In this document: one piece after another, positions 1,413-36,744 of the stretch
Layout: every line of letters begins with the position of its first letter
How positions within the stretch are numbered: position 1 is the stretch's first letter
The notes under the pieces: model-generated
Databases searched by the model: none
Seen by the model: only the letters and a program-made list of their open reading frames with translations
Told to the model about the DNA's origin: nothing
Position numbers and translations under genes: made by a program
Assembly: GCF_001677475.2 (NCBI RefSeq)
Contig: NZ_CP015229.1
Source: Escherichia coli
GTDB taxonomy: Bacteria; Pseudomonadota; Gammaproteobacteria; Enterobacterales; Enterobacteriaceae
Reading direction: 5' to 3' (one strand)
DNA: 64,000 nucleotides

Positions 1413-3812
1413 TCAGATGTTCAGCGGTAACACGCTGCTCATCCAGCCTGGAATTTCTTCGGCGGGCAGGGGGCGGGAAAAGAAATATCCCTGAATAACG
1501 CGACAGTGGATCTTGCGTAGCATCTCAAATTGCTCTTTGGTTTCGACGCCTTCCGCTACGACGGTTAAATTGAGGCTTTGCCCAATGCTGGTAATGGCTT
1601 CGAGTAAGGCAAGGATGCGTTTTTCGGTCAGACAACGATCGACAAAACTTTTGTCAATTTTGATTTCCGTTACCGGAAGACTGACTAAGCGGGATAACCC
1701 GGAAAAGCCCGTGCCAAAATCATCTACCGATAAACCCACGCCCATATCACGCAGGATCTGAATGCGCTTAAAGATTTCGGTATCGTGTTCCATCATCATG
1801 CTTTCTGTGATTTCCACCGTCAGCTGGTGGCCGTCAATACCCCAGGCGTGCATTGCATCAGATACCTGATTAGGCAGCTGATTACTGCGAAAGTGCAGCG
1901 CCGACAAGTTAACGGATAACGCCGGGATATGAATATTCTGGCTACGCCATTCTGCTAACTGACGGCAAGCTTCCGCGATGACCCAGCGCCCAATATTTTC
2001 GATTTCACCAATCTCTTCTGCGAGAGGAATAAATCGTGAAGGGGGCACATGACCATGCAGGGGATCGTGCCAGCGAGCAAGGGCTTCGATGCCGTACAGT
2101 TCACCCGTTTCTGCGAAGATTTGTGGCTGGTAAACCAGTTTCAGTTGGTTATTGCTAATCGCTTCTTTCAGCGCTGCGCCTAAAACCAAACGCTCTTTTA
2201 CCATTTCGTTCATCGCCGGGCTGAAGAACTGCCAGCCGTTACCGCCATTCTTGCGAATATAATCCATTGCATTGTGAGCAGTGGAGAGCAGGTAATCGCG
2301 GTTTTTACCCACGTCGTAGCTGATGCCAATACTCAAGGTAAGCGGGAAGGGTTTATCGTCAATCATTATCGGCTTGCTGACCACATTCCGTAGCTCATCG
2401 GCGATTTGGGTAATGTTACTGACGTCGTTTTCCAGGCTCACGAGGACAAACTGCGTACCTTCGATACGACAGAGATACTGATCCGGTTTGAGTTTTTCAC
2501 GAAAGCGATTGACCACTTCCAGCAATGCCTGATCGGCCCACGCATAGCCAAGGCTATCAATCACATCCTGAATATGGTCAACACCGATGAGATACACCAC
2601 CGGAGAGACGGCTTTGTCGACAAGGTCATCGAGGTAATTGTGCAGGTTATTGCGATTTGGCAGACCGGTCATCGGATCAAATTGGATGAGTTGTTCAATA
2701 TGCTGACGGCTTTTTTCCTGTTCCAGCGCCAGCGCGGCCATATGCTGGCTGATATCTGCCACGCGTTCGATAAAGGCGCTGGTTTCTGCTCCTGACGAGG
2801 TTTTAATTTGCAGGATCCCCGCAGGCGCGCCATCACGCTGACGAATGGTCGCTGACCAGCTTTGCGCATTTTGAACTTCTGCACCGTGCGAAGATGACGC
2901 CCAGTGTATCGGCATCCCGTTGCGCAGTGCGAACAGCGAAACATGCGATTCGTTGAGAACAGATTCGATGTTACGACAAATGATTTCCCCCATTTCATGA
3001 AATGGCGGGCTGCTGCACATGGCGGCGAGAATATTGCCTTCAAGCTGGCGTATTTGTCGTTCTTCGGTGATATCCGAGAAGGTCATTACCAGGTTCTGCA
3101 GATGCGCGAGCACGTCATAAACCGGGCTGATAGAGGCTTTAATCCAGATTTTTTCACCGGTGCGCGTCAACAGCAGAAATTCGTCCTGATCGCGGGCGGT
3201 TTTCCATAGCAACTGTTGTAAACGAATGCGGTTATCGGCAGGGAATTCAGGAATGTTCAGGAGTGTATCGGGCTGCATACCGCTGGCTTCGCTAATGCAG
3301 TAACCAAACATTTCGGTAAATGCGCGATTGCACTGCACAATATGACGTTCCGGATCGAGGACAATCACCGGTCGGTCGAGATGGTCAACGGCAATAATCA
3401 ATTGTCGGGTCTGTTCTTTTTGCGCCATTTCTACGCTGGCATCCCGTACCAGCGCCAGGTAATAAACTTTCCCCTCGGCGCTCACTTTCGATAGCGCAAA
3501 ACGGGTCCAGATTTTACTGCCGTCTTTTTTCTCCAGCTGCAGCTCCCGACTCATCCCCTCAACGCGCGCTTTACCGCCTTCACGGTTATGACGAATGTAT
3601 TCAGGATGCGCGGGACGCAAATCCTGCGGAATCAGCATATCAATGTTATTGCCAATGACTTCTTCACGTTTGTATCCCCAGAGCTTCTCTGCGGCGGGGT
3701 TGAAAAACATCACTTCATCATTTTCGTTAATTAACACCGCACCCATCATATTTTGCTCAAGGGCGGGGAAAAAAATGCCATCGGCGGCATTATCCGCATC
3801 GGTTAGCTTCAT
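1413..3812 (-). CDS. dosP: Oxygen-sensing c-di-GMP phosphodiesterase (haem PAS, GGDEF-EAL)
   Basis: ORF 1413..3836; start trimmed to MKLTDADNAADGIFFPALEQN... (799 aa) as in E. coli DosP; EAL-type C-terminus. Confidence 0.9.
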   Translation of the reverse strand: MKLTDADNAADGIFFPALEQNMMGAVLINENDEVMFFNPAAEKLWGYKREEVIGNNIDMLIPQDLRPAHPEYIRHNREGGKARVEGMSRELQLEKKDGSKIWTRFALSKVSAEGKVYYLALVRDASVEMAQKEQTRQLIIAVDHLDRPVIVLDPERHIVQCNRAFTEMFGYCISEASGMQPDTLLNIPEFPADNRIRLQQLLWKTARDQDEFLLLTRTGEKIWIKASISPVYDVLAHLQNLVMTFSDITEERQIRQLEGNILAAMCSSPPFHEMGEIICRNIESVLNESHVSLFALRNGMPIHWASSSHGAEVQNAQSWSATIRQRDGAPAGILQIKTSSGAETSAFIERVADISQHMAALALEQEKSRQHIEQLIQFDPMTGLPNRNNLHNYLDDLVDKAVSPVVYLIGVDHIQDVIDSLGYAWADQALLEVVNRFREKLKPDQYLCRIEGTQFVLVSLENDVSNITQIADELRNVVSKPIMIDDKPFPLTLSIGISYDVGKNRDYLLSTAHNAMDYIRKNGGNGWQFFSPAMNEMVKERLVLGAALKEAISNNQLKLVYQPQIFAETGELYGIEALARWHDPLHGHVPPSRFIPLAEEIGEIENIGRWVIAEACRQLAEWRSQNIHIPALSVNLSALHFRSNQLPNQVSDAMHAWGIDGHQLTVEITESMMMEHDTEIFKRIQILRDMGVGLSVDDFGTGFSGLSRLVSLPVTEIKIDKSFVDRCLTEKRILALLEAITSIGQSLNLTVVAEGVETKEQFEMLRKIHCRVIQGYFFSRPLPAEEIPGWMSSVLPLNI

Positions 3813-5595: not shown

Positions 5596-6915
5596 TTAAC
5601 TGCCCCAACGACTTTGCAGATAGCTGACCGCTTGTTGAGTCTGCGGTTTATTCAGATAGTCCTCACGGAACAAGATGGTGCCGCTAATTTCTGGTACCGC
5701 ATCGTTAAGATCGAGCTGCTTTTTCAGTTCCGGTACGCCGCCGTTAATCATCCAGTCTGGCTCTATCTTTGAAGGTTCACCCACTTTATAGAAGGCGATA
5801 CCGATATACAGGCGGGTCCTGGTCGGTTTAACGACATCCGCCCACCATTTTGCCAACACGTCATAACGCGCGGCACTCCGTGAGAACGGCCAGTAAATTT
5901 GGGGAGCAATGTAATCCAGCAATCCTTGTTCCACCCATCGACGGGTGTCAGCGTAGGATTCGTCATAGGCTGCCGCGCCTCGGGTATCGGAACCGAGCGG
6001 ATCGTGTGATCGGTTACGCCACACGCCTGCCGGGCTAACACCAAATTCGACTCCCGGCTTAATGCTTTTAATGGTGTGCGATACCTTTGCAATTAACTGC
6101 TGAGTATTGTTGCGCCGCCAGTCTGCTTTTGACGCAAATGCGCCTCCGTATTTACGGTACGTTTCGTTATCATTTAGCCGTGAACCCGGTGATTCAGTAT
6201 AGAAATAGTCGTCAAACTGCACGCCATCTACCGGATAGCGGGAAACCACTTCCGCGACTATTGATGTGATCCAGTCCTGAACCTCAGGGATGCCCGGGTC
6301 GAGGACAAAGCGATCGCCGGACGTTCTGATCCAGTCGCGGTGTTGCACATAGACGCTCGCCGGTTGTTGAGACAGAGTGCTATTCAGTTCCCTGATAGTA
6401 CCGGGCTTCGTATTAACCGATACGCGATAGGGGTTAAACCAGGCGTGTACTTTCATCCCACGCTTGTGAGCTTCGTCGAGAATAAATTGCAGCGGATCGT
6501 AACCTGGATTTTCACCAATCTTTCCGGTCATAAGATCGGACCACGGCAAAATTTTCGATGGCCACAGGGCGGTACCGTCCGGCTTGACCTGGAAAAAGAC
6601 CGTGTTTATGCCGAGACGTTGCAGATGATCCAGTTTGTCGATCATCGCCTGTTGTTGTACACGTGCCCGGCTGGTGGGGTTACTAATGTTAACCGAGGAA
6701 ACCGGTGGCCAGTCGAGGCGAGACACCGTGGCCAGCCAGATGCCACGCATCGGTTGTGACGATTGTTGCGTCGTGGCTGGTGGCTTCGAACCTGTTGGTG
6801 GTGTCACCATTGACTCTGGGGGCGTGCTTTTGCAACTACACAGTAAAAGTGCCAGTGCAACCAGTACCGCGGGTCTTCTAATCGCTAATTTCTCGTTTCG
6901 GGAGCAGATATCCAT
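5596..6915 (-). CDS. yddW: Lipoprotein glycoside hydrolase YddW/DigH
   Basis: 439-aa ORF with lipoprotein signal (…LLLCSCKS) recognised as E. coli YddW. Confidence 0.85.
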   Translation of the reverse strand: MDICSRNEKLAIRRPAVLVALALLLCSCKSTPPESMVTPPTGSKPPATTQQSSQPMRGIWLATVSRLDWPPVSSVNISNPTSRARVQQQAMIDKLDHLQRLGINTVFFQVKPDGTALWPSKILPWSDLMTGKIGENPGYDPLQFILDEAHKRGMKVHAWFNPYRVSVNTKPGTIRELNSTLSQQPASVYVQHRDWIRTSGDRFVLDPGIPEVQDWITSIVAEVVSRYPVDGVQFDDYFYTESPGSRLNDNETYRKYGGAFASKADWRRNNTQQLIAKVSHTIKSIKPGVEFGVSPAGVWRNRSHDPLGSDTRGAAAYDESYADTRRWVEQGLLDYIAPQIYWPFSRSAARYDVLAKWWADVVKPTRTRLYIGIAFYKVGEPSKIEPDWMINGGVPELKKQLDLNDAVPEISGTILFREDYLNKPQTQQAVSYLQSRWGS

Positions 6916-31278: not shown

Positions 31279-31711
31279 AATTCTCCAAAATCTATATTTA
31301 AGTAGCTGAATAAAGAGAGTTAACAATTAAGTCATTCTGTTATTGCTTATAAAACAAGAATCATTCTTGATTGGTTGTTGCCCTGAGAATATAGTTTCCA
31401 GGGTTATTACATTTCACGAAGAACGATAATATCTTTAAATCACAAGGACACCTAATCACAACAAGTTTATTGCTGCACTTGTTGGAGAGAGTATTTGCAA
31501 AAACATTTTATGGCGCTAAATAACATGACGATTTCATTATGCATGTTATTTATAAACCGTGACTAAACAGAATATTATTGCGGACAAGGGAAGTGTCAGG
31601 AAAGGTCAAGAGATACTAATGGTTTATATGGCTATAAATCATTAGTTATGGTTAATGTTTGCCTGGTGTAACTAACACGGAATTGCTCTAAACAGATAAG
31701 TGCAGGGTTTA

Positions 31712-32062
31712 TTAAAGCTGACCGACAGACTTTCTTAACCTGGTAATATCTCTCTTAGGTGACTCTCCAAACATCCGCGAATATTCCCGACTGAAATGGG
31801 ATAAGCTTTCGTAACCGACAGCATAGGCTGCAGTGGTGACATCGTAATGTTCATTCAGCATCGGTCGCCTGGCTTCATTGAGGCGTAGCCATTTCTGATA
31901 CCGGAGTGGACTCATTCCCGCAAGCTGTCTGAAGTGTTGATGGAAAGAGGGGGGTTCATTTGCACGCGGTTTGCCAGCCTGACTCTTCAACGCAGGGAAG
32001 ATGCGGCAAACGGCAAACCTGCATACCAGCCAGCCTATATCCGGTATGCACAGGCTAATCAT
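31712..32062 (-). pseudogene. yneL: AraC-family regulator fragment (HTH domain only)
   Basis: 116-aa ORF carrying only an AraC-type HTH (…LSHFSREYSRMFGESPKRD…) with no sensing domain; corresponds to the yneL remnant that flanks dif in K-12. Confidence 0.6.
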
Positions 32063-32141
32063 GAAAGAGGAGAGGCTTTATGTTCTTGAACCCTGAAGTA
32101 ATAACGACGACCGGAAAATCGCTTCGCATCACTCAAACTCA

Positions 32142-32169
32142 ATTTAACATAATATACATTATGCGCACT
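32142..32169. other. dif-like site, left junction (attL): host-like XerD arm, phage-like XerC arm
   Basis: ATTTAACATAA-TATACA-TTATGCGCACT; 27 of 28 identical to the reverse complement of E. coli dif (GGTGCGCATAATGTATATTATGTTAAAT, recalled); the single mismatch is the outermost base of the XerC arm. Confidence 0.85.
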
Positions 32170-32181
32170 AAGGTGCGCATA
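32160..32181 (+). repeat. 9-bp perfect inverted repeat of the XerC-binding arm
   Basis: TATGCGCAC-TAAG-GTGCGCATA; the left half is the XerC arm of attL, the right half an inverted copy; overlaps a 10-bp palindrome CGCATATGCG (32176..32185). Confidence 0.8.
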
Positions 32182-32202
32182 TGCGTATTCTGGAGGTGTG
32201 TC

Positions 32203-33066
32203 ATGGCTTGTACTCGTCCTTTGAACGCGTACCAAATGCCATCGGGGAAGATTTTTTTCACGCCGTCACGTGGCGCTAAATTCATTCAGTTGCCCTGTGG
32301 TCAGTGCATCGGTTGCCGTCTTGCTCATTCTCGTGACTGGGCGACCCGCTGCGTTCATGAAGCCCACATGCACGATCACAATTGTTTTATCACTCTGACT
32401 TATTCGCCTGAGAATTTACCTGAAGGCGGTACTCTCGTTCGTAAACATTTCACCGATTTTATGAAGCGTTTGCGTAAGGAATTAGATAAGGATGATGTGA
32501 AAATTCGTTATTTTGGCTGTGGTGAATATGGCTCTAAATTAGAGCGACCGCATTATCATGCGATTATTTTTGGTTATGATTTTCCGGATAAGACACTTTA
32601 TAAAGCGGGAAGATTTAATTTATTTAATTCCCCGCTTCTTTCGAGATGTTGGAATCTTGGTTGGGCTGTTATTGCTGGTTTTAGTTTTGAGTCGGCTGCT
32701 TATGTGGCGCGATACTGTGTTAAAAAAATCAACGGTTTCCGTGCAGATGAGCATTATGGACATCGCCTACCCGAGTTTTCGGCTATGAGTAATCGCCCAG
32801 GTATTGGGTATGATTTTTTTATGACCTATTACGAGGATATTGTTAATGCAGATGCGTGTATTGGTCGTGGCGGTCGTCAGATAAAACCGCCCCGCTATTA
32901 TGACAAGTTATTATCAGGCTGTGATTTGGAAAAGTTGCAGCAGAATAAAGAAAAGCGCCAGTTAAATGCCCGTGTATTAGACCCGTGGCGTTTGCAGGAT
33001 TTGGATAAGTTTAATCTGGTTAAATTCCAGCGAATGATGAGGAAATTAGAAGATGGCTCACTCTGA
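32203..33066 (+). CDS. Replication initiation protein (VP4, rolling-circle HUH endonuclease)
   Basis: Track ORF 32080..33066 trimmed to MACTRPLNAYQ… (287 aa) with GGAGG 6 nt upstream. Rolling-circle motifs: FITLTY, HYHAIIF (HUH), AAYVARYCVKK (catalytic Tyr pair), plus CGQCIGC. Confidence 0.9.
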   Translation: MACTRPLNAYQMPSGKIFFTPSRGAKFIQLPCGQCIGCRLAHSRDWATRCVHEAHMHDHNCFITLTYSPENLPEGGTLVRKHFTDFMKRLRKELDKDDVKIRYFGCGEYGSKLERPHYHAIIFGYDFPDKTLYKAGRFNLFNSPLLSRCWNLGWAVIAGFSFESAAYVARYCVKKINGFRADEHYGHRLPEFSAMSNRPGIGYDFFMTYYEDIVNADACIGRGGRQIKPPRYYDKLLSGCDLEKLQQNKEKRQLNARVLDPWRLQDLDKFNLVKFQRMMRKLEDGSL

Positions 33067-33322
33067 TGCAGTTTATGTAATTCATGACAAGCTGATTGCG
33101 GCTGATGTTTTTATGTTTATGGCCCAGCATGATGGTATTGCGAAAGGCAATTTGCACGCGTTCTGTAACCGTATGCAGCGCACTGACTTTGTGCTGTACC
33201 GTGTGACGGCTTATGACTTTGAAGACCAGCAGCTCGTCCCCGTGGACATTGACCGCGTTTATATTTGCACCGCTTTCCCTGCCATGCTGGAGAATGCCCA
33301 AGATGAAATCCTTGAAGCGTAA
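33053..33322 (+). CDS. Small phage protein, VP5-like
   Basis: 89-aa ORF overlapping the VP4 3' end and the VP3 start; assigned by size and position in the gokushovirus gene order, not by motif. Confidence 0.6.
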   Translation: MAHSDAVYVIHDKLIAADVFMFMAQHDGIAKGNLHAFCNRMQRTDFVLYRVTAYDFEDQQLVPVDIDRVYICTAFPAMLENAQDEILEA

Positions 33323-33815
33323 GTTCCATACCCGCTATGACCCGCCGCCGTCGCCCGGCATCGAGTTCAAAGAACCCACGATGACCCAGCAGCATTTCCG
33401 CGATGAGTGCGACATCAACAAGATTGTTGAGCGTGCGATAAGAACGGGAGATACGACAGTCTTTACCAGTGCTCAACGTGCTGATTTCTACGATGCATCT
33501 TCGATTACTGACTACGTGGACGCAATGGCTTTAATTGACGACGTTAACGACGACTTTAACAGCCTGCCGTCCACGATTCGCTCGATGTTTGGTAATAACG
33601 TTAAGCAGTACGTTGAGTGGATGAGTAATCCCGCGAACTGGAATAAAGCCCGTGAGCTTGGATTGTTGAGCGGCGGAGAGGAGTCGGCGACCGAACGCGC
33701 CAGCGTTCGCGAGTCGAGTCCTGCTCCGGCGTCCCCGCGGGAGCGTGAGCGGACTTCGGAGAGTTCCCCGAAGGGGGAGTCGGAGAAGTCTGCGAATAAT
33801 GATGCAGGCTCATGA
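33303..33815 (+). CDS. Internal scaffolding protein, VP3-like
   Basis: ORF 33213..33815; likely start MKSLKRKFHTRYDPPPSPGIEF… (33303, or 33294); acidic Ser/Glu-rich C-terminus. Assigned by position and size. Confidence 0.6.
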   Translation: MKSLKRKFHTRYDPPPSPGIEFKEPTMTQQHFRDECDINKIVERAIRTGDTTVFTSAQRADFYDASSITDYVDAMALIDDVNDDFNSLPSTIRSMFGNNVKQYVEWMSNPANWNKARELGLLSGGEESATERASVRESSPAPASPRERERTSESSPKGESEKSANNDAGS

Positions 33816-33855
33816 GCTGCATGAAAAAAACCTGAAGACGGCTCCGGCCCTTCAG

Positions 33856-33892
33856 CCTGGCACAGTGGCCCTCTTGATGTAACTGTGCCAGG
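33856..33892 (+). repeat. 11-bp perfect stem-loop in the VP3-VP1 intergenic region
   Basis: cctggcacagt-(15 nt)-actgtgccagg. Confidence 0.8.
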
Positions 33893-33904
33893 TGACACCG
33901 AAAC

Positions 33905-33932
33905 TTACAGGCGGCTCCCACGAAGCCTGTAA
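33905..33932 (+). repeat. 8-bp stem-loop in the VP3-VP1 intergenic region
   Basis: ttacaggc-(12 nt)-gcctgtaa. Confidence 0.75.
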
Positions 33933-33992
33933 AAAGGTGTCAGTTTATACAGTAGTTTGTGTAGTATTTAAACAATTCCCTGAGGGGGGTTT

Positions 33993-35705
33993 ATGAGTAA
34001 ATTCGGTCGTAAAGTACCTAGTAATGCAAAAAGTCAGCATAATTTTTCAGTAATCCCGAGTGCCAATATTCAGCGTTCGGTCTTTAACCGCAGCTCTGGT
34101 TATAAAACCACTTTTGACGCTGGTTATTTGATTCCCGTGTTTCTGGATGAGGCTTTGCCGGGTGATACATTCCACCTGAAAACGTCCATACTGGCGCGTT
34201 TATCCACGCCAGTGGTGCCGTTTATGGATAACCTGCGACTGGACATCCAGTATTTTTCCGTGCCCTACCGTCTGGTCTGGGATAACTGGCAGAAATTCAA
34301 CGGTGAACAGAAGAATCCTGGCGATTCGACGGATTACCTTATTCCGCAGATTAAAGCCCCTGCTGGCGGCTTCCCTGTAGGCTCCCTTGCCGATTATTTT
34401 GGTGTTCCCACAGGTGTGGAGAATATCAGTGTAAGCGCCCTGCCGTTCCGCGCTTATAACCTGATTTATAACGAGTGGTATCGTGATGAAAACCTGATTA
34501 ATTCCGCCCCGCTTCCGCTTGGCGATGAGGAAGAAACAGGCCTCGCCAATTTCCCGCTGCGTAAGCGTGCCAAGCGTCACGATTACTTCACAAGTGCTCT
34601 GCCGTGGCCTCAGAAGGGTGAAGGCGTTGAGATTGGTTTAGGCGTTCCGCCGTCGTATACGCTCGATTTCCCGACCTATCCTGATGGTCTGCCGTTTGTT
34701 TCTTATGGCGTTGGTGTCGATGGAGATATGACTTCGCACAATCCGACTTATCTTGCCCGTAATAATGTTAACGAAGGCTCATCATACGAGGCCTATGGTA
34801 ATGCGGTTTATATGAGTGACGGCAGGAATCCCAGCAATCCGCTGGAATGGCCTCCTATGTCGCCCTCCACTGGACGTATTGATGTTATTGGTGGTTTTAG
34901 CAGAAACCAGCCTCCGGTTACGTTAAATAAGCAAGGTGGTGAAGTTGTCGATAATCTGACAATTAACTCGCTGCGTCAGGCGTTCCAGCTTCAGCGGCTG
35001 CTTGAGCGCGATGCTCGCGGTGGTACTCGCTATATTGAGATTATCCGCTCCCACTTTGGCGTTATTTCGCCTGATGCCCGTGTACAGCGTCCCGAGTATC
35101 TCGGCTCTGGTTCATTCGACATAAATATTAATCCTGTTCTTCAAAACTCCGCGACGACCGACGCAAGTCCGCAAGGCAACCTCGCGGCCTATGGTGTCTC
35201 CGGTGGTGTTAACCGTGGATTTTCTCATTCTTTTGTGGAGCACTGTTTTGTTATTGGCCTTGTTAGCGTTCGTGCTGACCTGACCTACCAGCAAGGCATC
35301 CCGCGCATGTTCTCCCGCCAGACCCGCTTTGATTTCTACTGGCCTGCACTGGCTCACCTGGGCGAACAGGCTATCCTTAACAAGGAGATTTACGCGCAAG
35401 GCAACGACAAGGATGATGAAGTATTTGGCTACCAGGAACGTTACGCGGAGTACCGCTACCGACCGTCTCAGATTACTGGTAAATTGCGTTCTACCGACCC
35501 GCAATCCCTCGATGTGTGGCATTTAGCCCAGCGGTTCGACTCTCTGCCCGCACTGAATCAGGAGTTTATCGAGGAGAATCCACCGATGAAGCGCGTCCTC
35601 GCCGTACAGGACGAGCCTCAGTTCATCATGGATGCGTTCTTCGACCTGAAGTGTGTGCGGCCTATGCCTGTTTACTCAGTACCAGGTCTTATCGATCATT
35701 TCTAA
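33993..35705 (+). CDS. Major capsid protein (VP1, Microviridae F-protein family)
   Basis: 570-aa ORF MSKFGRKVPSNAKSQHNFSVIPSANIQRSVFNRSSGYKTTFDAGYLIPVFLDEALPGDTF…, closely resembling the conserved N-terminal block of gokushovirus VP1 (recalled Chlamydia-phage pattern …IQRS.F.RS.G.KTTFDAGYLIP…PGDTF…); RBS GAGGGGGG. Confidence 0.9.
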   Translation: MSKFGRKVPSNAKSQHNFSVIPSANIQRSVFNRSSGYKTTFDAGYLIPVFLDEALPGDTFHLKTSILARLSTPVVPFMDNLRLDIQYFSVPYRLVWDNWQKFNGEQKNPGDSTDYLIPQIKAPAGGFPVGSLADYFGVPTGVENISVSALPFRAYNLIYNEWYRDENLINSAPLPLGDEEETGLANFPLRKRAKRHDYFTSALPWPQKGEGVEIGLGVPPSYTLDFPTYPDGLPFVSYGVGVDGDMTSHNPTYLARNNVNEGSSYEAYGNAVYMSDGRNPSNPLEWPPMSPSTGRIDVIGGFSRNQPPVTLNKQGGEVVDNLTINSLRQAFQLQRLLERDARGGTRYIEIIRSHFGVISPDARVQRPEYLGSGSFDININPVLQNSATTDASPQGNLAAYGVSGGVNRGFSHSFVEHCFVIGLVSVRADLTYQQGIPRMFSRQTRFDFYWPALAHLGEQAILNKEIYAQGNDKDDEVFGYQERYAEYRYRPSQITGKLRSTDPQSLDVWHLAQRFDSLPALNQEFIEENPPMKRVLAVQDEPQFIMDAFFDLKCVRPMPVYSVPGLIDHF

Positions 35706-35722
35706 GTTACATTGTCACTTTT

Positions 35723-35745
35723 GGCCTCTGCGGAGGCCTTTTTTT
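35723..35745 (+). terminator. Intrinsic terminator/attenuator after the capsid gene
   Basis: ggcctc-tgcg-gaggcc followed by TTTTTTT. Confidence 0.7.
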
Positions 35746-35759
35746 CATGAGGTGAAATT

Positions 35760-36542
35760 ATGGGCTTTTTATCATCTGCCATTGGTGCCGCTGGTTCTAT
35801 TGCCGGCTCCCTGCTTGGTGCGAACTCTGCGAAGGATTCAGCTAACCGTGCCAATAAGTTAACGATGGATTTGGCCAAAAACGGCATCCAGTACCGTGTG
35901 CAGGATTTACGGAAAGCTGGCCTTAACCCCATTCTGGCCGTTACTGGTTCCGGTGGTCTTGGTTCCGTCAGTTCGTCAGGTATTCAGGCCGCCCAGCCTG
36001 CCGATTTTTCTGGTGTGGTTAATTCTGCGGTCAGCGTATTTGACGCATTAACGAAGCGTCAGCAGCAGGAAGTCGCTAAGGAAGGCATCATGTCCCAGAT
36101 TGCGTTACAACGTAACCAGATTGCGAATAGCGCGGCTGATGTGAAGCTCAAAGAGGCTCAGGCTGCGCAAGCCTTATCTTCCATTTCTACTGGTAATGCC
36201 CAGACTAATTTGATTAATCAGCAGGCTTTGACCGAGGCTTCCCGCCGTGCCAATATTGAAGCACAGACGGGCCTTAGTTCTGCGCAGCGGATTAGAACAC
36301 AGTATCAAACTGTACAGGACAAGGTTTTGGCTGATTATTTGAATACACCGATTGGAGCTGAAAGTGCACGTGTCAATATGGATGCTTCTCGCGGTGGTAT
36401 CGTTGGCGGCGTTAATACTTTTCTGCGTTCTTTGCAACGTGATTACCCGTCTAACTCGAACTCTGCGAAGAAAGTAAACAAGGGGGGAACCTTCCCCCCT
36501 TCACAGTTCCAACAGCAATTGATTAATAACTATCGGAGGTAA
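35760..36542 (+). CDS. Minor capsid / DNA pilot protein (VP2-like)
   Basis: 260-aa ORF with Gly/Ala/Ser-rich N-terminus (MGFLSSAIGAAGSIAGSLLGANSA…) and Gln/Ala-rich predicted coiled region; RBS GAGGTG; position after VP1. Confidence 0.7.
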   Translation: MGFLSSAIGAAGSIAGSLLGANSAKDSANRANKLTMDLAKNGIQYRVQDLRKAGLNPILAVTGSGGLGSVSSSGIQAAQPADFSGVVNSAVSVFDALTKRQQQEVAKEGIMSQIALQRNQIANSAADVKLKEAQAAQALSSISTGNAQTNLINQQALTEASRRANIEAQTGLSSAQRIRTQYQTVQDKVLADYLNTPIGAESARVNMDASRGGIVGGVNTFLRSLQRDYPSNSNSAKKVNKGGTFPPSQFQQQLINNYRR

Positions 36543-36543
36543 T

Positions 36544-36663
36544 ATGGCTCGTTCTCGCCGTCGTATGTCCAAGCGTTCTTCCCGTCGTTCGTTCCGTAAG
36601 TACGCAAAGACGCATAAACGTAACTTTAAAGCCCGCTCTATGCGTGGTGGAATTCGTCTTTGA
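36544..36663 (+). CDS. Small basic DNA-binding protein (VP8 / J-like), absent from the ORF track
   Basis: ATG at 36544, stop TGA 36661..36663; translation MARSRRRMSKRSSRRSFRKYAKTHKRNFKARSMRGGIRL (39 aa, roughly 40% Arg/Lys). Confidence 0.7.
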   Translation: MARSRRRMSKRSSRRSFRKYAKTHKRNFKARSMRGGIRL

Positions 36664-36693
36664 TTGACAAAGTTGATCGTAACGATCTATGAT
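36664..36693 (+). promoter_or_regulatory. Putative sigma70 promoter at the prophage right end
   Basis: TTGACA (36664..36669), 18-bp spacer, TATGAT (36688..36693); the spacer contains GATCGTAACGATC with two GATC sites. Pattern match only. Confidence 0.35.
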
Positions 36694-36716
36694 AATTATC
36701 GTAAGTCGTTGTTTTT

Positions 36717-36744
36717 GTTAAACTAAATATACATTATGCGCACC
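36717..36744. other. dif-like site, right junction (attR): phage-like degenerate XerD arm, host-like XerC arm
   Basis: GTTAAACTAAA-TATACA-TTATGCGCACC; XerD arm 7 of 11, central region 6 of 6, XerC arm 11 of 11 versus dif. Confidence 0.8.

Follow-up and report, generated by a model that had tools for sequence, protein, structure and literature searches.

Next to the dif site of Escherichia coli, in the 64,000-nt stretch of DNA that was analysed here (the window), lies a short AraC-type reading frame, and on the other side of the site lies a prophage. The question raised by this locus is what shortened the AraC-type gene. An earlier description made from the letters alone (the sequence-only reading) had suggested an old deletion or rearrangement at dif itself, older than the prophage, and had proposed that repeated IMEX traffic at dif could erode neighbouring genes.

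The window is part of the E. coli terminus region. The ydeQRST/fim-like fimbrial operon lies to the left of the reading frame, on the minus strand, and ends at 31326; to the right of the prophage are hipA/hipB, a large autotransporter gene and lsrK. The dif site next to the reading frame (32142–32169, minus strand; ATTTAACATAATATACATTATGCGCACT) is functional-looking and has 27 of its 28 positions in common with the reverse complement of E. coli dif. It constitutes the attL of the prophage and consists of the host XerD arm and spacer, with an XerC arm (AGTGCGCATAA) in which position 1 is changed from G to A, a variant that is shared with three other lysogens. The attR (36717–36744, minus strand) matches at 24 of 28 positions and combines a degenerate, phage-derived XerD-like arm with a perfect host XerC arm. 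All six KOPS motifs to the left of dif are on the plus strand and all three to its right are on the minus strand; since this strand switch falls exactly at 32142–32169, the site is the genuine terminus dif, and it serves as an attachment site of the dif/IMEX type. Beyond attL and attR, no further dif-like site with up to 8 mismatches, of the kind that would mark an old IMEX on the yneL side, was found in the 64 kb.

The reading frame (31712–32062, minus strand) appears in the ORF list of the window as a protein of 116 aa. Residues 38–104 match HTH_18 (5.9e-20, with a score above the cutoff of 33.6 bits) and the frame also matches HTH_AraC (3.6e-08), while no N-terminal domain was matched in the 116 aa by Pfam; the description as a truncated AraC-type gene is therefore correct. 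Its ATG at 32062 was said to lie 80 bp from the left dif-like site, and this agrees with the distance to 32142 (80 nt in coordinates, 79 bases between). The statement that the frame retains only an HTH domain holds as well, with corrections: the HTH_18 region is the only Pfam domain region, the HTH is clipped, with profile positions 10–76 of 80 matched and the first HTH incomplete, and residues 1–37 are not AraC-derived at all. These residues are antisense or out-of-frame readthrough of the relics of other genes. The ATG is likewise not the ancestral start codon; it overlaps, on the opposite strand, the start codon of a DUF2255 gene. By the ORF list, Pfam and frame analysis, AraC-derived sequence is confined to residues 38–116, and its match to the C-terminal, two-HTH DNA-binding domain of about 100 aa places the origin of the remnant in the AraC/XylS family.

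The yneL relic proper is shorter than the frame. It occupies 31712–31977 on the minus strand, with the stop codon at 31712–31714, and corresponds to codons 217–304 of 304, the 3′ end of a gene for an AraC_N + HTH_18 regulator, so that 88 of the 304 codons are kept. In blastn comparisons with intact orthologues the identity is 84–88% over 270–300 bp and the alignment always starts at window 31976–31978; position 31977 (codon 217) is an abrupt edge of AraC DNA homology. At the protein level, residues 226–304 of the orthologues are matched at 89–92% (tblastn). A homopolymer run at 31949–31954 has lost one nucleotide compared with the SCU-172 allele and all orthologues (GAACACCCCC to GAAC-CCCCC), as seen in the allele alignment, in the blastn gap and in a position check. 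This loss frameshifts the relic, and it is only past the missing base, from about 31948 (codon 226/227) onwards, that the ORF is read in the ancestral frame. A conserved Leu is replaced by Pro in the window relic and by Gln in K-12. The AraC_N domain (PF06719) is absent from all frames of the window; the remnant descends from the AraC_N, YqhC-like subfamily and has since lost that architecture. A consensus promoter scan of 31600–32203 found no sigma-70-like promoter on either strand.

The feature is the already known E. coli pseudogene yneL. The equivalent in K-12 MG1655 is annotated as pseudogene b1506, in the ydeT-hipA interval, and in every strain inspected PGAP labels the gene as 'incomplete; missing N-terminus', the K-12-type allele being additionally 'frameshifted'. 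A survey from 2022 of the transcription factors of E. coli likewise counts yneL among the pseudogenes and notes that its context varies by strain (PMC9308461). The window relic is a pseudogene by virtue of the 88 of 304 codons kept, the frameshift at 31949–31954, the different lesions of the K-12-type allele and the annotation, and it is very probably non-functional. The same survey gives a microarray signal for K-12 yneL, and given this signal the relic may be transcribed.

Intact orthologues of 304 aa (MIS[DE]KSVEKLL...AGKL) were found by protein search and by a scan of GTDB species representatives. They are present in Enterobacter vonholyi, Citrobacter youngae, Klebsiella michiganensis, Enterobacter sp. 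MGH 24 and E. mori. Pfam places AraC_N at residues 31–181 (3.8e-45) and HTH_18/HTH_AraC at 204–291, and solved AraC-type DNA-binding domains align to residues ~197–294; the relic's copy of this domain is thus clipped at its N-terminal end. The architecture is YqhC-like, and a function resembling that of YqhC is suggested by the shared Pfam architecture, the single ground for this likeness.

In the orthologue loci the AraC gene is divergent from a 365-aa alpha/beta-hydrolase gene, and in three of the five species with an intact orthologue dif is found on the side of the hydrolase gene and its XerD arm points towards the gene pair. In MGH 24 (L014) the AraC start codon is 1.4 kb from dif and the hydrolase stop codon only 115 bp from it. 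In C. youngae (L012) a HigBA pair intervenes and the AraC start codon is 2.6 kb away; in E. vonholyi (L011), where flavodoxin-like and DUF2255 genes intervene, the distance is 4.4 kb. The frameshifted genes of E. hormaechei (L023) and K. pneumoniae (L007) start 2.0 kb and 5.0 kb from dif, respectively. No dif was found within 10 kb upstream of the orthologue in K. michiganensis and E. mori. Because the arrangement is conserved across genera wherever dif is nearby, the synteny of dif and the AraC gene is ancestral and no peculiarity of E. coli.

The scan of species representatives, which used exact peptide patterns that divergent relics could escape, found no such locus in any named Escherichia, Shigella or Salmonella record; its sole E. 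coli-like match was a mis-binned MAG. The ancestral state proposed below is drawn from other genera, no Escherichia genome showing it, and should be read as a reconstruction. It had been pointed out beforehand that a full-length homologue at identical dif spacing in close relatives would make the truncation recent and strain-specific. No such homologue was found; intact orthologues occur only in other genera and at larger spacing.

The 164 bp between the yneL relic and dif contain relics of the ancestral neighbours, which keep the ancestral order and orientation. The first (31980–32039, plus strand) is an internal 60-bp piece from the middle of the 365-aa alpha/beta-hydrolase gene, encoding ..LQR(W)EDAANGKPAYQPAY. 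It is 85–93% identical to loci L007, L011, L012, L014 and L015, and 81% identical over 58 bp to L013, with a best E of 5e-17; it also matches the intact hydrolase gene of E. coli A35. In loci without an intervening ADH fragment, the counterpart of this piece lies ~0.85–1 kb upstream of the AraC start codon. Reading the upstream frames as frameshifted AraC N-terminal remains (AGWYAGLPFAASSLR*RVRLANRVQM, resembling ..IDWLKTNIASPLRVEELASRVQM) was considered and dropped; blastn with Klebsiella assigned the 60-bp piece to a different gene on the other strand.

The hydrolase piece is followed by a 21-bp leftover spacer (32040–32060), of which about 15 bp are common to the K-12-type allele and the remaining ~6 bp are filler at the deletion junction, ACCGGA on the minus strand (allele and pairwise alignments). 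The next relic is the 5′ end of a DUF2255 gene (32061–32131, plus strand), with ribosome-binding site, start codons, ~20 codons and a 16-bp internal deletion. These ~70 bp align locally to 3667–3753 of the K. pneumoniae locus L007 and to 6505–6591 of the E. vonholyi locus L011, whose intact gene matches DUF2255 at 9.2e-40 (Pfam). This is the oldest relic, common to the window-type and K-12-type alleles. The last 10 nt before dif are at 32132–32141; the 5 nt that touch the XerD arm vary by allele, being TGAGT in the window and GTGAT, GTAAT, TGGAT or CATGT elsewhere. In the K-12-type allele, DUF2255 homology extends to the base that touches the XerD arm; among window-type alleles the 5 nt nearest to dif are variable.

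Comparison with the intact loci allows the deletions to be placed. The junctions that truncate yneL (31977/31980 and 32039/32040) are today 165 and 103 bp from dif, and the corresponding points in intact relatives are inside two different genes, 0.5–6 kb from dif. Codons 1–216 were removed by a deletion from the AraC gene into the hydrolase gene, a distance of ~1.5–1.8 kb in intact relatives; the 3′ half of the hydrolase gene was lost in a second deletion, and relics are left between both deletions and dif. Because the junctions are 103 and 165 bp away, and because the relics of the intervening genes are still in order, the truncation cannot be placed at dif, as had been proposed; the deletion that truncated yneL has neither endpoint there, and it does not have the form of a dif-anchored, Xer-mediated deletion.

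A third, older deletion does reach dif. Its junction is 0–5 bp from the outer edge of the XerD arm and is common to both yneL-bearing alleles. Xer exchange takes place in the 6-bp spacer, with cuts at the spacer borders and not at the outer edge of an arm. An Xer-mediated origin is not supported for this older deletion, because the DUF2255 genes that serve as proxies contain no dif-like sequence and because of the position of the Xer cuts; some room is left for a dif-linked contribution. A pseudo-dif at the deletion junction was rejected as a candidate: the best one in a proxy DUF2255 gene has 10–11 mismatches of 28 and lies off the junction.

The flank exists in several forms in E. coli. The shared 3′ part of yneL is present in 4026 of 5426 complete genomes and absent from ~1400; a 112-bp segment of the K-12 type is found in 3048 of the 5426 and a 125-bp segment of the window type in 815. 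In the K-12-type allele yneL starts only at codon 236, the first 235 being gone, and has an extra frameshift at codon 274/275, inside the second HTH; this allele keeps 82 bp of the hydrolase 3′/terminator region (E = 1e-13) that are missing from the window type. The B2-type allele, of which NC101 is an example, has no yneL and carries 98 bp of the hydrolase gene that the other two lack. In NC101, 6.8 kb of mostly fragmentary genes and pseudogenes separate this piece from dif, beyond which are two tandem filamentous prophages. Two of the E. coli alleles have an identical breakpoint inside the hydrolase gene.

Since each of the three alleles holds ancestral DNA that is absent from the others, they are mutually non-derivable by deletion alone, which implies at least three independent deletion histories from a fuller ancestor. 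An intermediate allele, in which the hydrolase relics of 60 and 98 bp would adjoin each other at the dif locus, was found in none of the 5426 genomes. The N-terminal two thirds of the gene occur in 94 of the 5426, and in neither of the two contexts inspected do they belong to the resident allele. In A35 the AraC gene is in an argW/intS island, together with a partial alcohol dehydrogenase and the hydrolase, and its DNA is 86% identical to that of the relic; in EC476 a second, Enterobacter-like copy (98% to E. vonholyi) is in an inserted, integrase-bearing element beside the resident relic. An intact resident gene was therefore rejected in both contexts.

The orthologue is also being lost outside E. 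coli. In K. pneumoniae ATCC 13883 a single 5.3-kb deletion, with its junction ~430 bp from dif, has left codons ~220–304, and the ERR025142 lineage keeps codons 136–304 (a protein cluster of 68 member sequences). A pair of frameshifts, at codons 45/46 and 119/120, is common to four K. pneumoniae assemblies, and E. hormaechei has one frameshift near codon 182. Loss through both frameshifts and deletions is expected under relaxed selection and needs no dif-specific mechanism.

The prophage allows the truncation to be placed in time. A phage leader of 33 nt (32170–32202, plus strand) contains a GGAGG ribosome-binding site before the VP4 ATG at 32203 and an inverted copy of the XerC arm; an inverted repeat at 32160–32181 spans attL and the leader. 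The body of the prophage, a gokushovirus (32203–36716, plus strand), encodes VP4 (32203–33066), a scaffold protein, the capsid protein VP1 (33993–35705), VP2 and a small basic ORF, as identified by Pfam (REP_ORF2-G2P, Chlamy_scaf and Phage_F) and by a phage database match. The element, ~4.5 kb in all, is 92% identical to Escherichia phage EC6098, the megablast match starting at query base 1, which is window 32170. Upstream of VP4 in the lysogen come 33 nt of phage DNA, attL and the host relics, in that order, in agreement with the statement that only host DNA precedes it.

That the truncation predates the prophage was also borne out. SCU-172 has a window-type flank (97.4% identical) and a perfect dif but no prophage, and related prophages occur in only 6 of the 5426 genomes that yielded the 4026 relics; three of the six, the lysogens C41, MEI7BO1-21 and C5, carry the K-12-type flank. 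Because the same alleles occur free of prophage and because other lysogens carry the K-12-type allele, the truncation of yneL is older than the integration and independent of it. The element integrated on the XerC-arm side of dif, away from yneL, and left the flank unaltered.

Taken together, the best explanation is the ordinary deletional decay of a dispensable ancestral module, leaving yneL as a relic, and we put the probability of this reading at about 0.85. In the E. coli ancestor the XerD-arm side of dif would have been occupied by an accessory block consisting, from dif outwards, of variable cargo including a DUF2255 gene, of the 365-aa alpha/beta-hydrolase gene and of the divergent, 304-aa YqhC-like AraC regulator; the block is still present in Enterobacter, Citrobacter and Klebsiella. 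In the lineage leading to E. coli it presumably lost its value and was worn down, probably neutrally, by illegitimate deletions with short or no junction homology. The older deletion, which took everything between dif and roughly codon 30 of the DUF2255 gene (~25 from the called start in K. pneumoniae), would have come first. Independent later deletions may then have removed, lineage by lineage, most of the hydrolase gene together with regulator codons: the first 216 in the window type, 235 in the K-12 type and all of them in the B2 type. Point frameshifts would have followed, while dif was probably kept intact because it is under selection. The gokushovirus would have integrated into dif later, by XerCD, with the yneL flank untouched.

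Some observations sit less easily with ordinary decay. The older junction, at 0–5 bp from the XerD arm, is closer to it than a random endpoint would usually be. All of the truncations come from the side that faces dif, and the E. coli flank is unusually polymorphic.

A terminus-specific instability could account for these features, with more double-strand breaks and RecBCD processing near dif leading to faster loss, and dif acting as the selected stop point. Terminal hyper-recombination is a known property of this region, and the septum-induced breakage of unresolved dimers would be part of the same process. The hydrolase/AraC module shows at least five independent cuts, in three E. coli alleles and two Klebsiella lineages, in each case from the dif side; at least 80% of the 840-bp flank is covered in only 1257 of 5164 matching genomes; and the B2 flank is mostly pseudogenes over its 6.8 kb. 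The XerC side is variable too, hipBA being lost in SCU-172 and replaced in L024–L026. However, the same gene also decays by frameshifts, and hipA, on the opposite side and only 76 bp from dif, was found intact in the window and in the majority of the strains seen; we regard this explanation as unlikely.

A broader form of the same idea would make the XerD-arm flank of dif a recurrent 'deletion sink' throughout the Enterobacteriaceae, emptied by a mutational process specific to the terminus (breakage or processing at dif, dimer resolution or septation) beyond the generic loss of pseudogenes. It is suggested by the repeated dif-side cuts, the flush junction, the shared breakpoint in the hydrolase gene and the hypervariable 5 nt at dif, and we consider it doubtful.

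Erosion by Xer recombination or IMEX, whether through imprecise excision or through XerCD recombination between dif and a pseudo-dif that deleted the flanking genes along with the 5′ part of yneL, would be in keeping with the one old deletion that ends at the XerD arm. The site is, moreover, used by mobile elements: the gokushovirus of the window, the tandem filamentous prophages of NC101 and the integrase-bearing element of EC476. Against this, the yneL-truncating junctions are 103 and 165 bp away from dif and have relics of the intervening genes beside them, the scanned DUF2255 gene offers no partner site, and established Xer biochemistry puts the exchange in the spacer. The flank is identical in lysogens and non-lysogens, the element entered on the far side of dif, and the orthologues of K. 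pneumoniae and E. hormaechei were broken by frameshifts. As the cause of the yneL truncation this process, and with it the proposal of IMEX traffic, is largely refuted, and we consider it very improbable.

That yneL survives as a stand-alone, MarA- or SoxS-like DNA-binding protein retained beside dif, as its open 116-codon frame in the window, the significant HTH_18 match and the array expression of K-12 yneL (PMC9308461) might suggest, is hardly credible, given a domain that starts at about residue 197, of which the relic, with codon 217 as its first and the correct frame only from 226/227, has lost helix 1 and most of the first HTH, a 37-residue N-terminus that is junk and differs by allele (P0002, P0003, P0007, P0010), a frameshift inside the second HTH of the commonest allele (3048 genomes), the substituted Leu, the lack of any promoter-like site in the region scanned and the absence of the relic from about 1400 genomes.

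Ordinary decay of an ancestral module thus remains the preferred reading, and it has some practical consequences. Annotators should be warned that the 116-aa ORF is an artefact of the relics of three genes, for which the label of regulator is unwarranted; similarly, the yneL relic, as the neighbour of the prophage, is uninformative about the phage. The three non-derivable decay products could serve as a lineage marker. The locus would also suit a small test of whether the loss of DNA beside dif outpaces that elsewhere, and the reconstructed ancestral dif flank, with its DUF2255, alpha/beta-hydrolase and YqhC-like regulator genes, is a modest addition to what was known of it.

The arrangement can be compared with four known systems. 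The first concerns the relic's neighbour. Lysogeny of enterogokushoviruses at dif has been described by Kirchberger and Ochman (2020, PMC7062461), in the passages used here, with a near-perfect dif on the upstream side, a degenerate dif of the phage on the downstream side and VP4 in first place among the genes; the window, whose prophage is close to EC6098, matches this dif layout and VP4-first order. Those passages do not discuss the yneL flank.

MarA, SoxS and the N-domain of Rob resemble the relic in their small size and in their match to HTH_18/HTH_AraC, and MarA (1bl0) and RamA align to residues 197–291 of the intact orthologue. In contrast to the relic, which is without the beginning of the domain and shows no evidence of selection, these proteins have a complete two-HTH domain.

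K-12 yneL (b1506) occupies the same locus, between the ydeQRST/fim-like operon and dif/hipA, and is ~97% identical over the shared 3′ 210 bp. The window allele, which is the minority form, differs from it in 19 additional codons (217–235), in the 60-bp hydrolase relic and in its own frameshift at 31949–31954; it is without the 82-bp terminator relic and the frameshift at codon 274/275.

Finally, compared with the YqhC-type AraC regulators, represented by the intact orthologues and by the copy in the argW island of A35, the relic is without the entire AraC_N domain and the first 20–30 residues of the DNA-binding domain. It resembles them in what it keeps, the 89–92% protein identity extending over residues 226–304, and wherever dif is nearby their loci show the same synteny with the hydrolase gene and dif as the relic locus.

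The pieces of the alpha/beta-hydrolase gene that are found in the window-type and B2-type alleles of the E. coli dif flank are adjacent parts of that gene, and they meet at one identical nucleotide. The meeting point is 32039/32040 in the window and 955/956 in L020, the dif locus of the B2 strain NC101 (…CAGTTTAT|TATAGGCTGG…). None of the 5426 complete E. coli genomes has the two pieces joined at the dif locus. This pattern may reflect an ancestral insertion at the 32039/32040 point, followed by deletions running in opposite directions.

The XerD-side flank of NC101 (L020 900-25001) is a different one, with 6.8 kb that contain many gene fragments, among them bhsA', LysR', a histidine kinase fragment and an esterase fragment; immediately past dif, this strain carries two filamentous (Zot/pII-type) prophages in tandem. 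Structural variation is found on the XerC-arm side of dif as well (L001 3416-5840; L024-L026 4250-4890). Strain SCU-172 (L001) has lost hipBA by deletion, with IS2 and IS4 close by, and in the three assemblies L024-L026 a LysR fragment stands in place of hipBA. Outside E. coli, the yneL orthologue of K. pneumoniae (5475-6384 in L005-L008) has its reading frame broken at codons 45/46 and again at codons 119/120 in each of four independent assemblies, and may be a fixed frameshift pseudogene rather than the product of an assembly error.

At a finer scale, the five nucleotides adjoining the XerD arm (32137-32141 in the window, with equivalents in loci L001, L010, L022 and L024) vary between alleles that are otherwise approximately 97% identical; the variants are TGAGT, GTGAT, GTAAT and TGGAT, with CATGT in the K-12-type allele. 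The three to five nucleotides beyond the XerC arm are variable too (ATGTT, ATACT, ATATT).

On the phage side of attL, directly inside the site, phage DNA repeats the XerC arm in inverted orientation (32160-32181; TATGCGCAC-CTTA-GTGCGCATA, with a 9-bp stem), and this sequence could fold as a hairpin in the single-stranded DNA phage. Sequence identical to this copy flanks attL in two further lysogens, C41 and MEI7BO1-21. The same junction is crossed by a plus-strand open reading frame of 328 amino acids (32080-33066), which begins at the start codon and ribosome-binding site kept in the DUF2255 relic and continues in frame through dif into VP4, extending that protein by 41 residues. This reading frame is probably incidental, because its ATG is missing from the K-12-type flank.

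At the other end of the prophage, a strong sigma-70-like promoter is predicted on the plus strand at 36664-36693 (TTGACA, 18-nt spacer, TATGAT; 11 of 12 matches), shortly upstream of the phage dif site, attR (36717-36744). In the circular phage, this promoter would read through attP into VP4, which begins at 32203; in the lysogen it is parted from VP4 and faces the 3' end of hipA. We infer from this arrangement that integration, by separating promoter and VP4, could silence the replication gene passively.

In some strains, the match to the host flank ends approximately 7-10 nucleotides inside the XerD arm (ATTTAAC|TTATGTTGTGCG…), and foreign DNA follows, as in EC476 (L022 8390-18604) and in YPE12 (L003, from about 3178). 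The 10 kb of foreign DNA examined in EC476 carry IS elements together with a site-specific integrase and an Enterobacter-like AraC gene of full length. A canonical dif was not found past the break in the approximately 10 kb scanned in EC476 or the approximately 2.3 kb scanned in YPE12. This arrangement looks like a dif-targeting element that carries its own integrase. In strain A35 (L021 4345-9417), an argW/intS island contains a module in which the intact regulator and the hydrolase are accompanied by part of an iron-dependent alcohol dehydrogenase gene. The N-terminal part of the A35 regulator has matches of at least 99% identity in 87 genomes; the module of the dif flank therefore also moves as island cargo.
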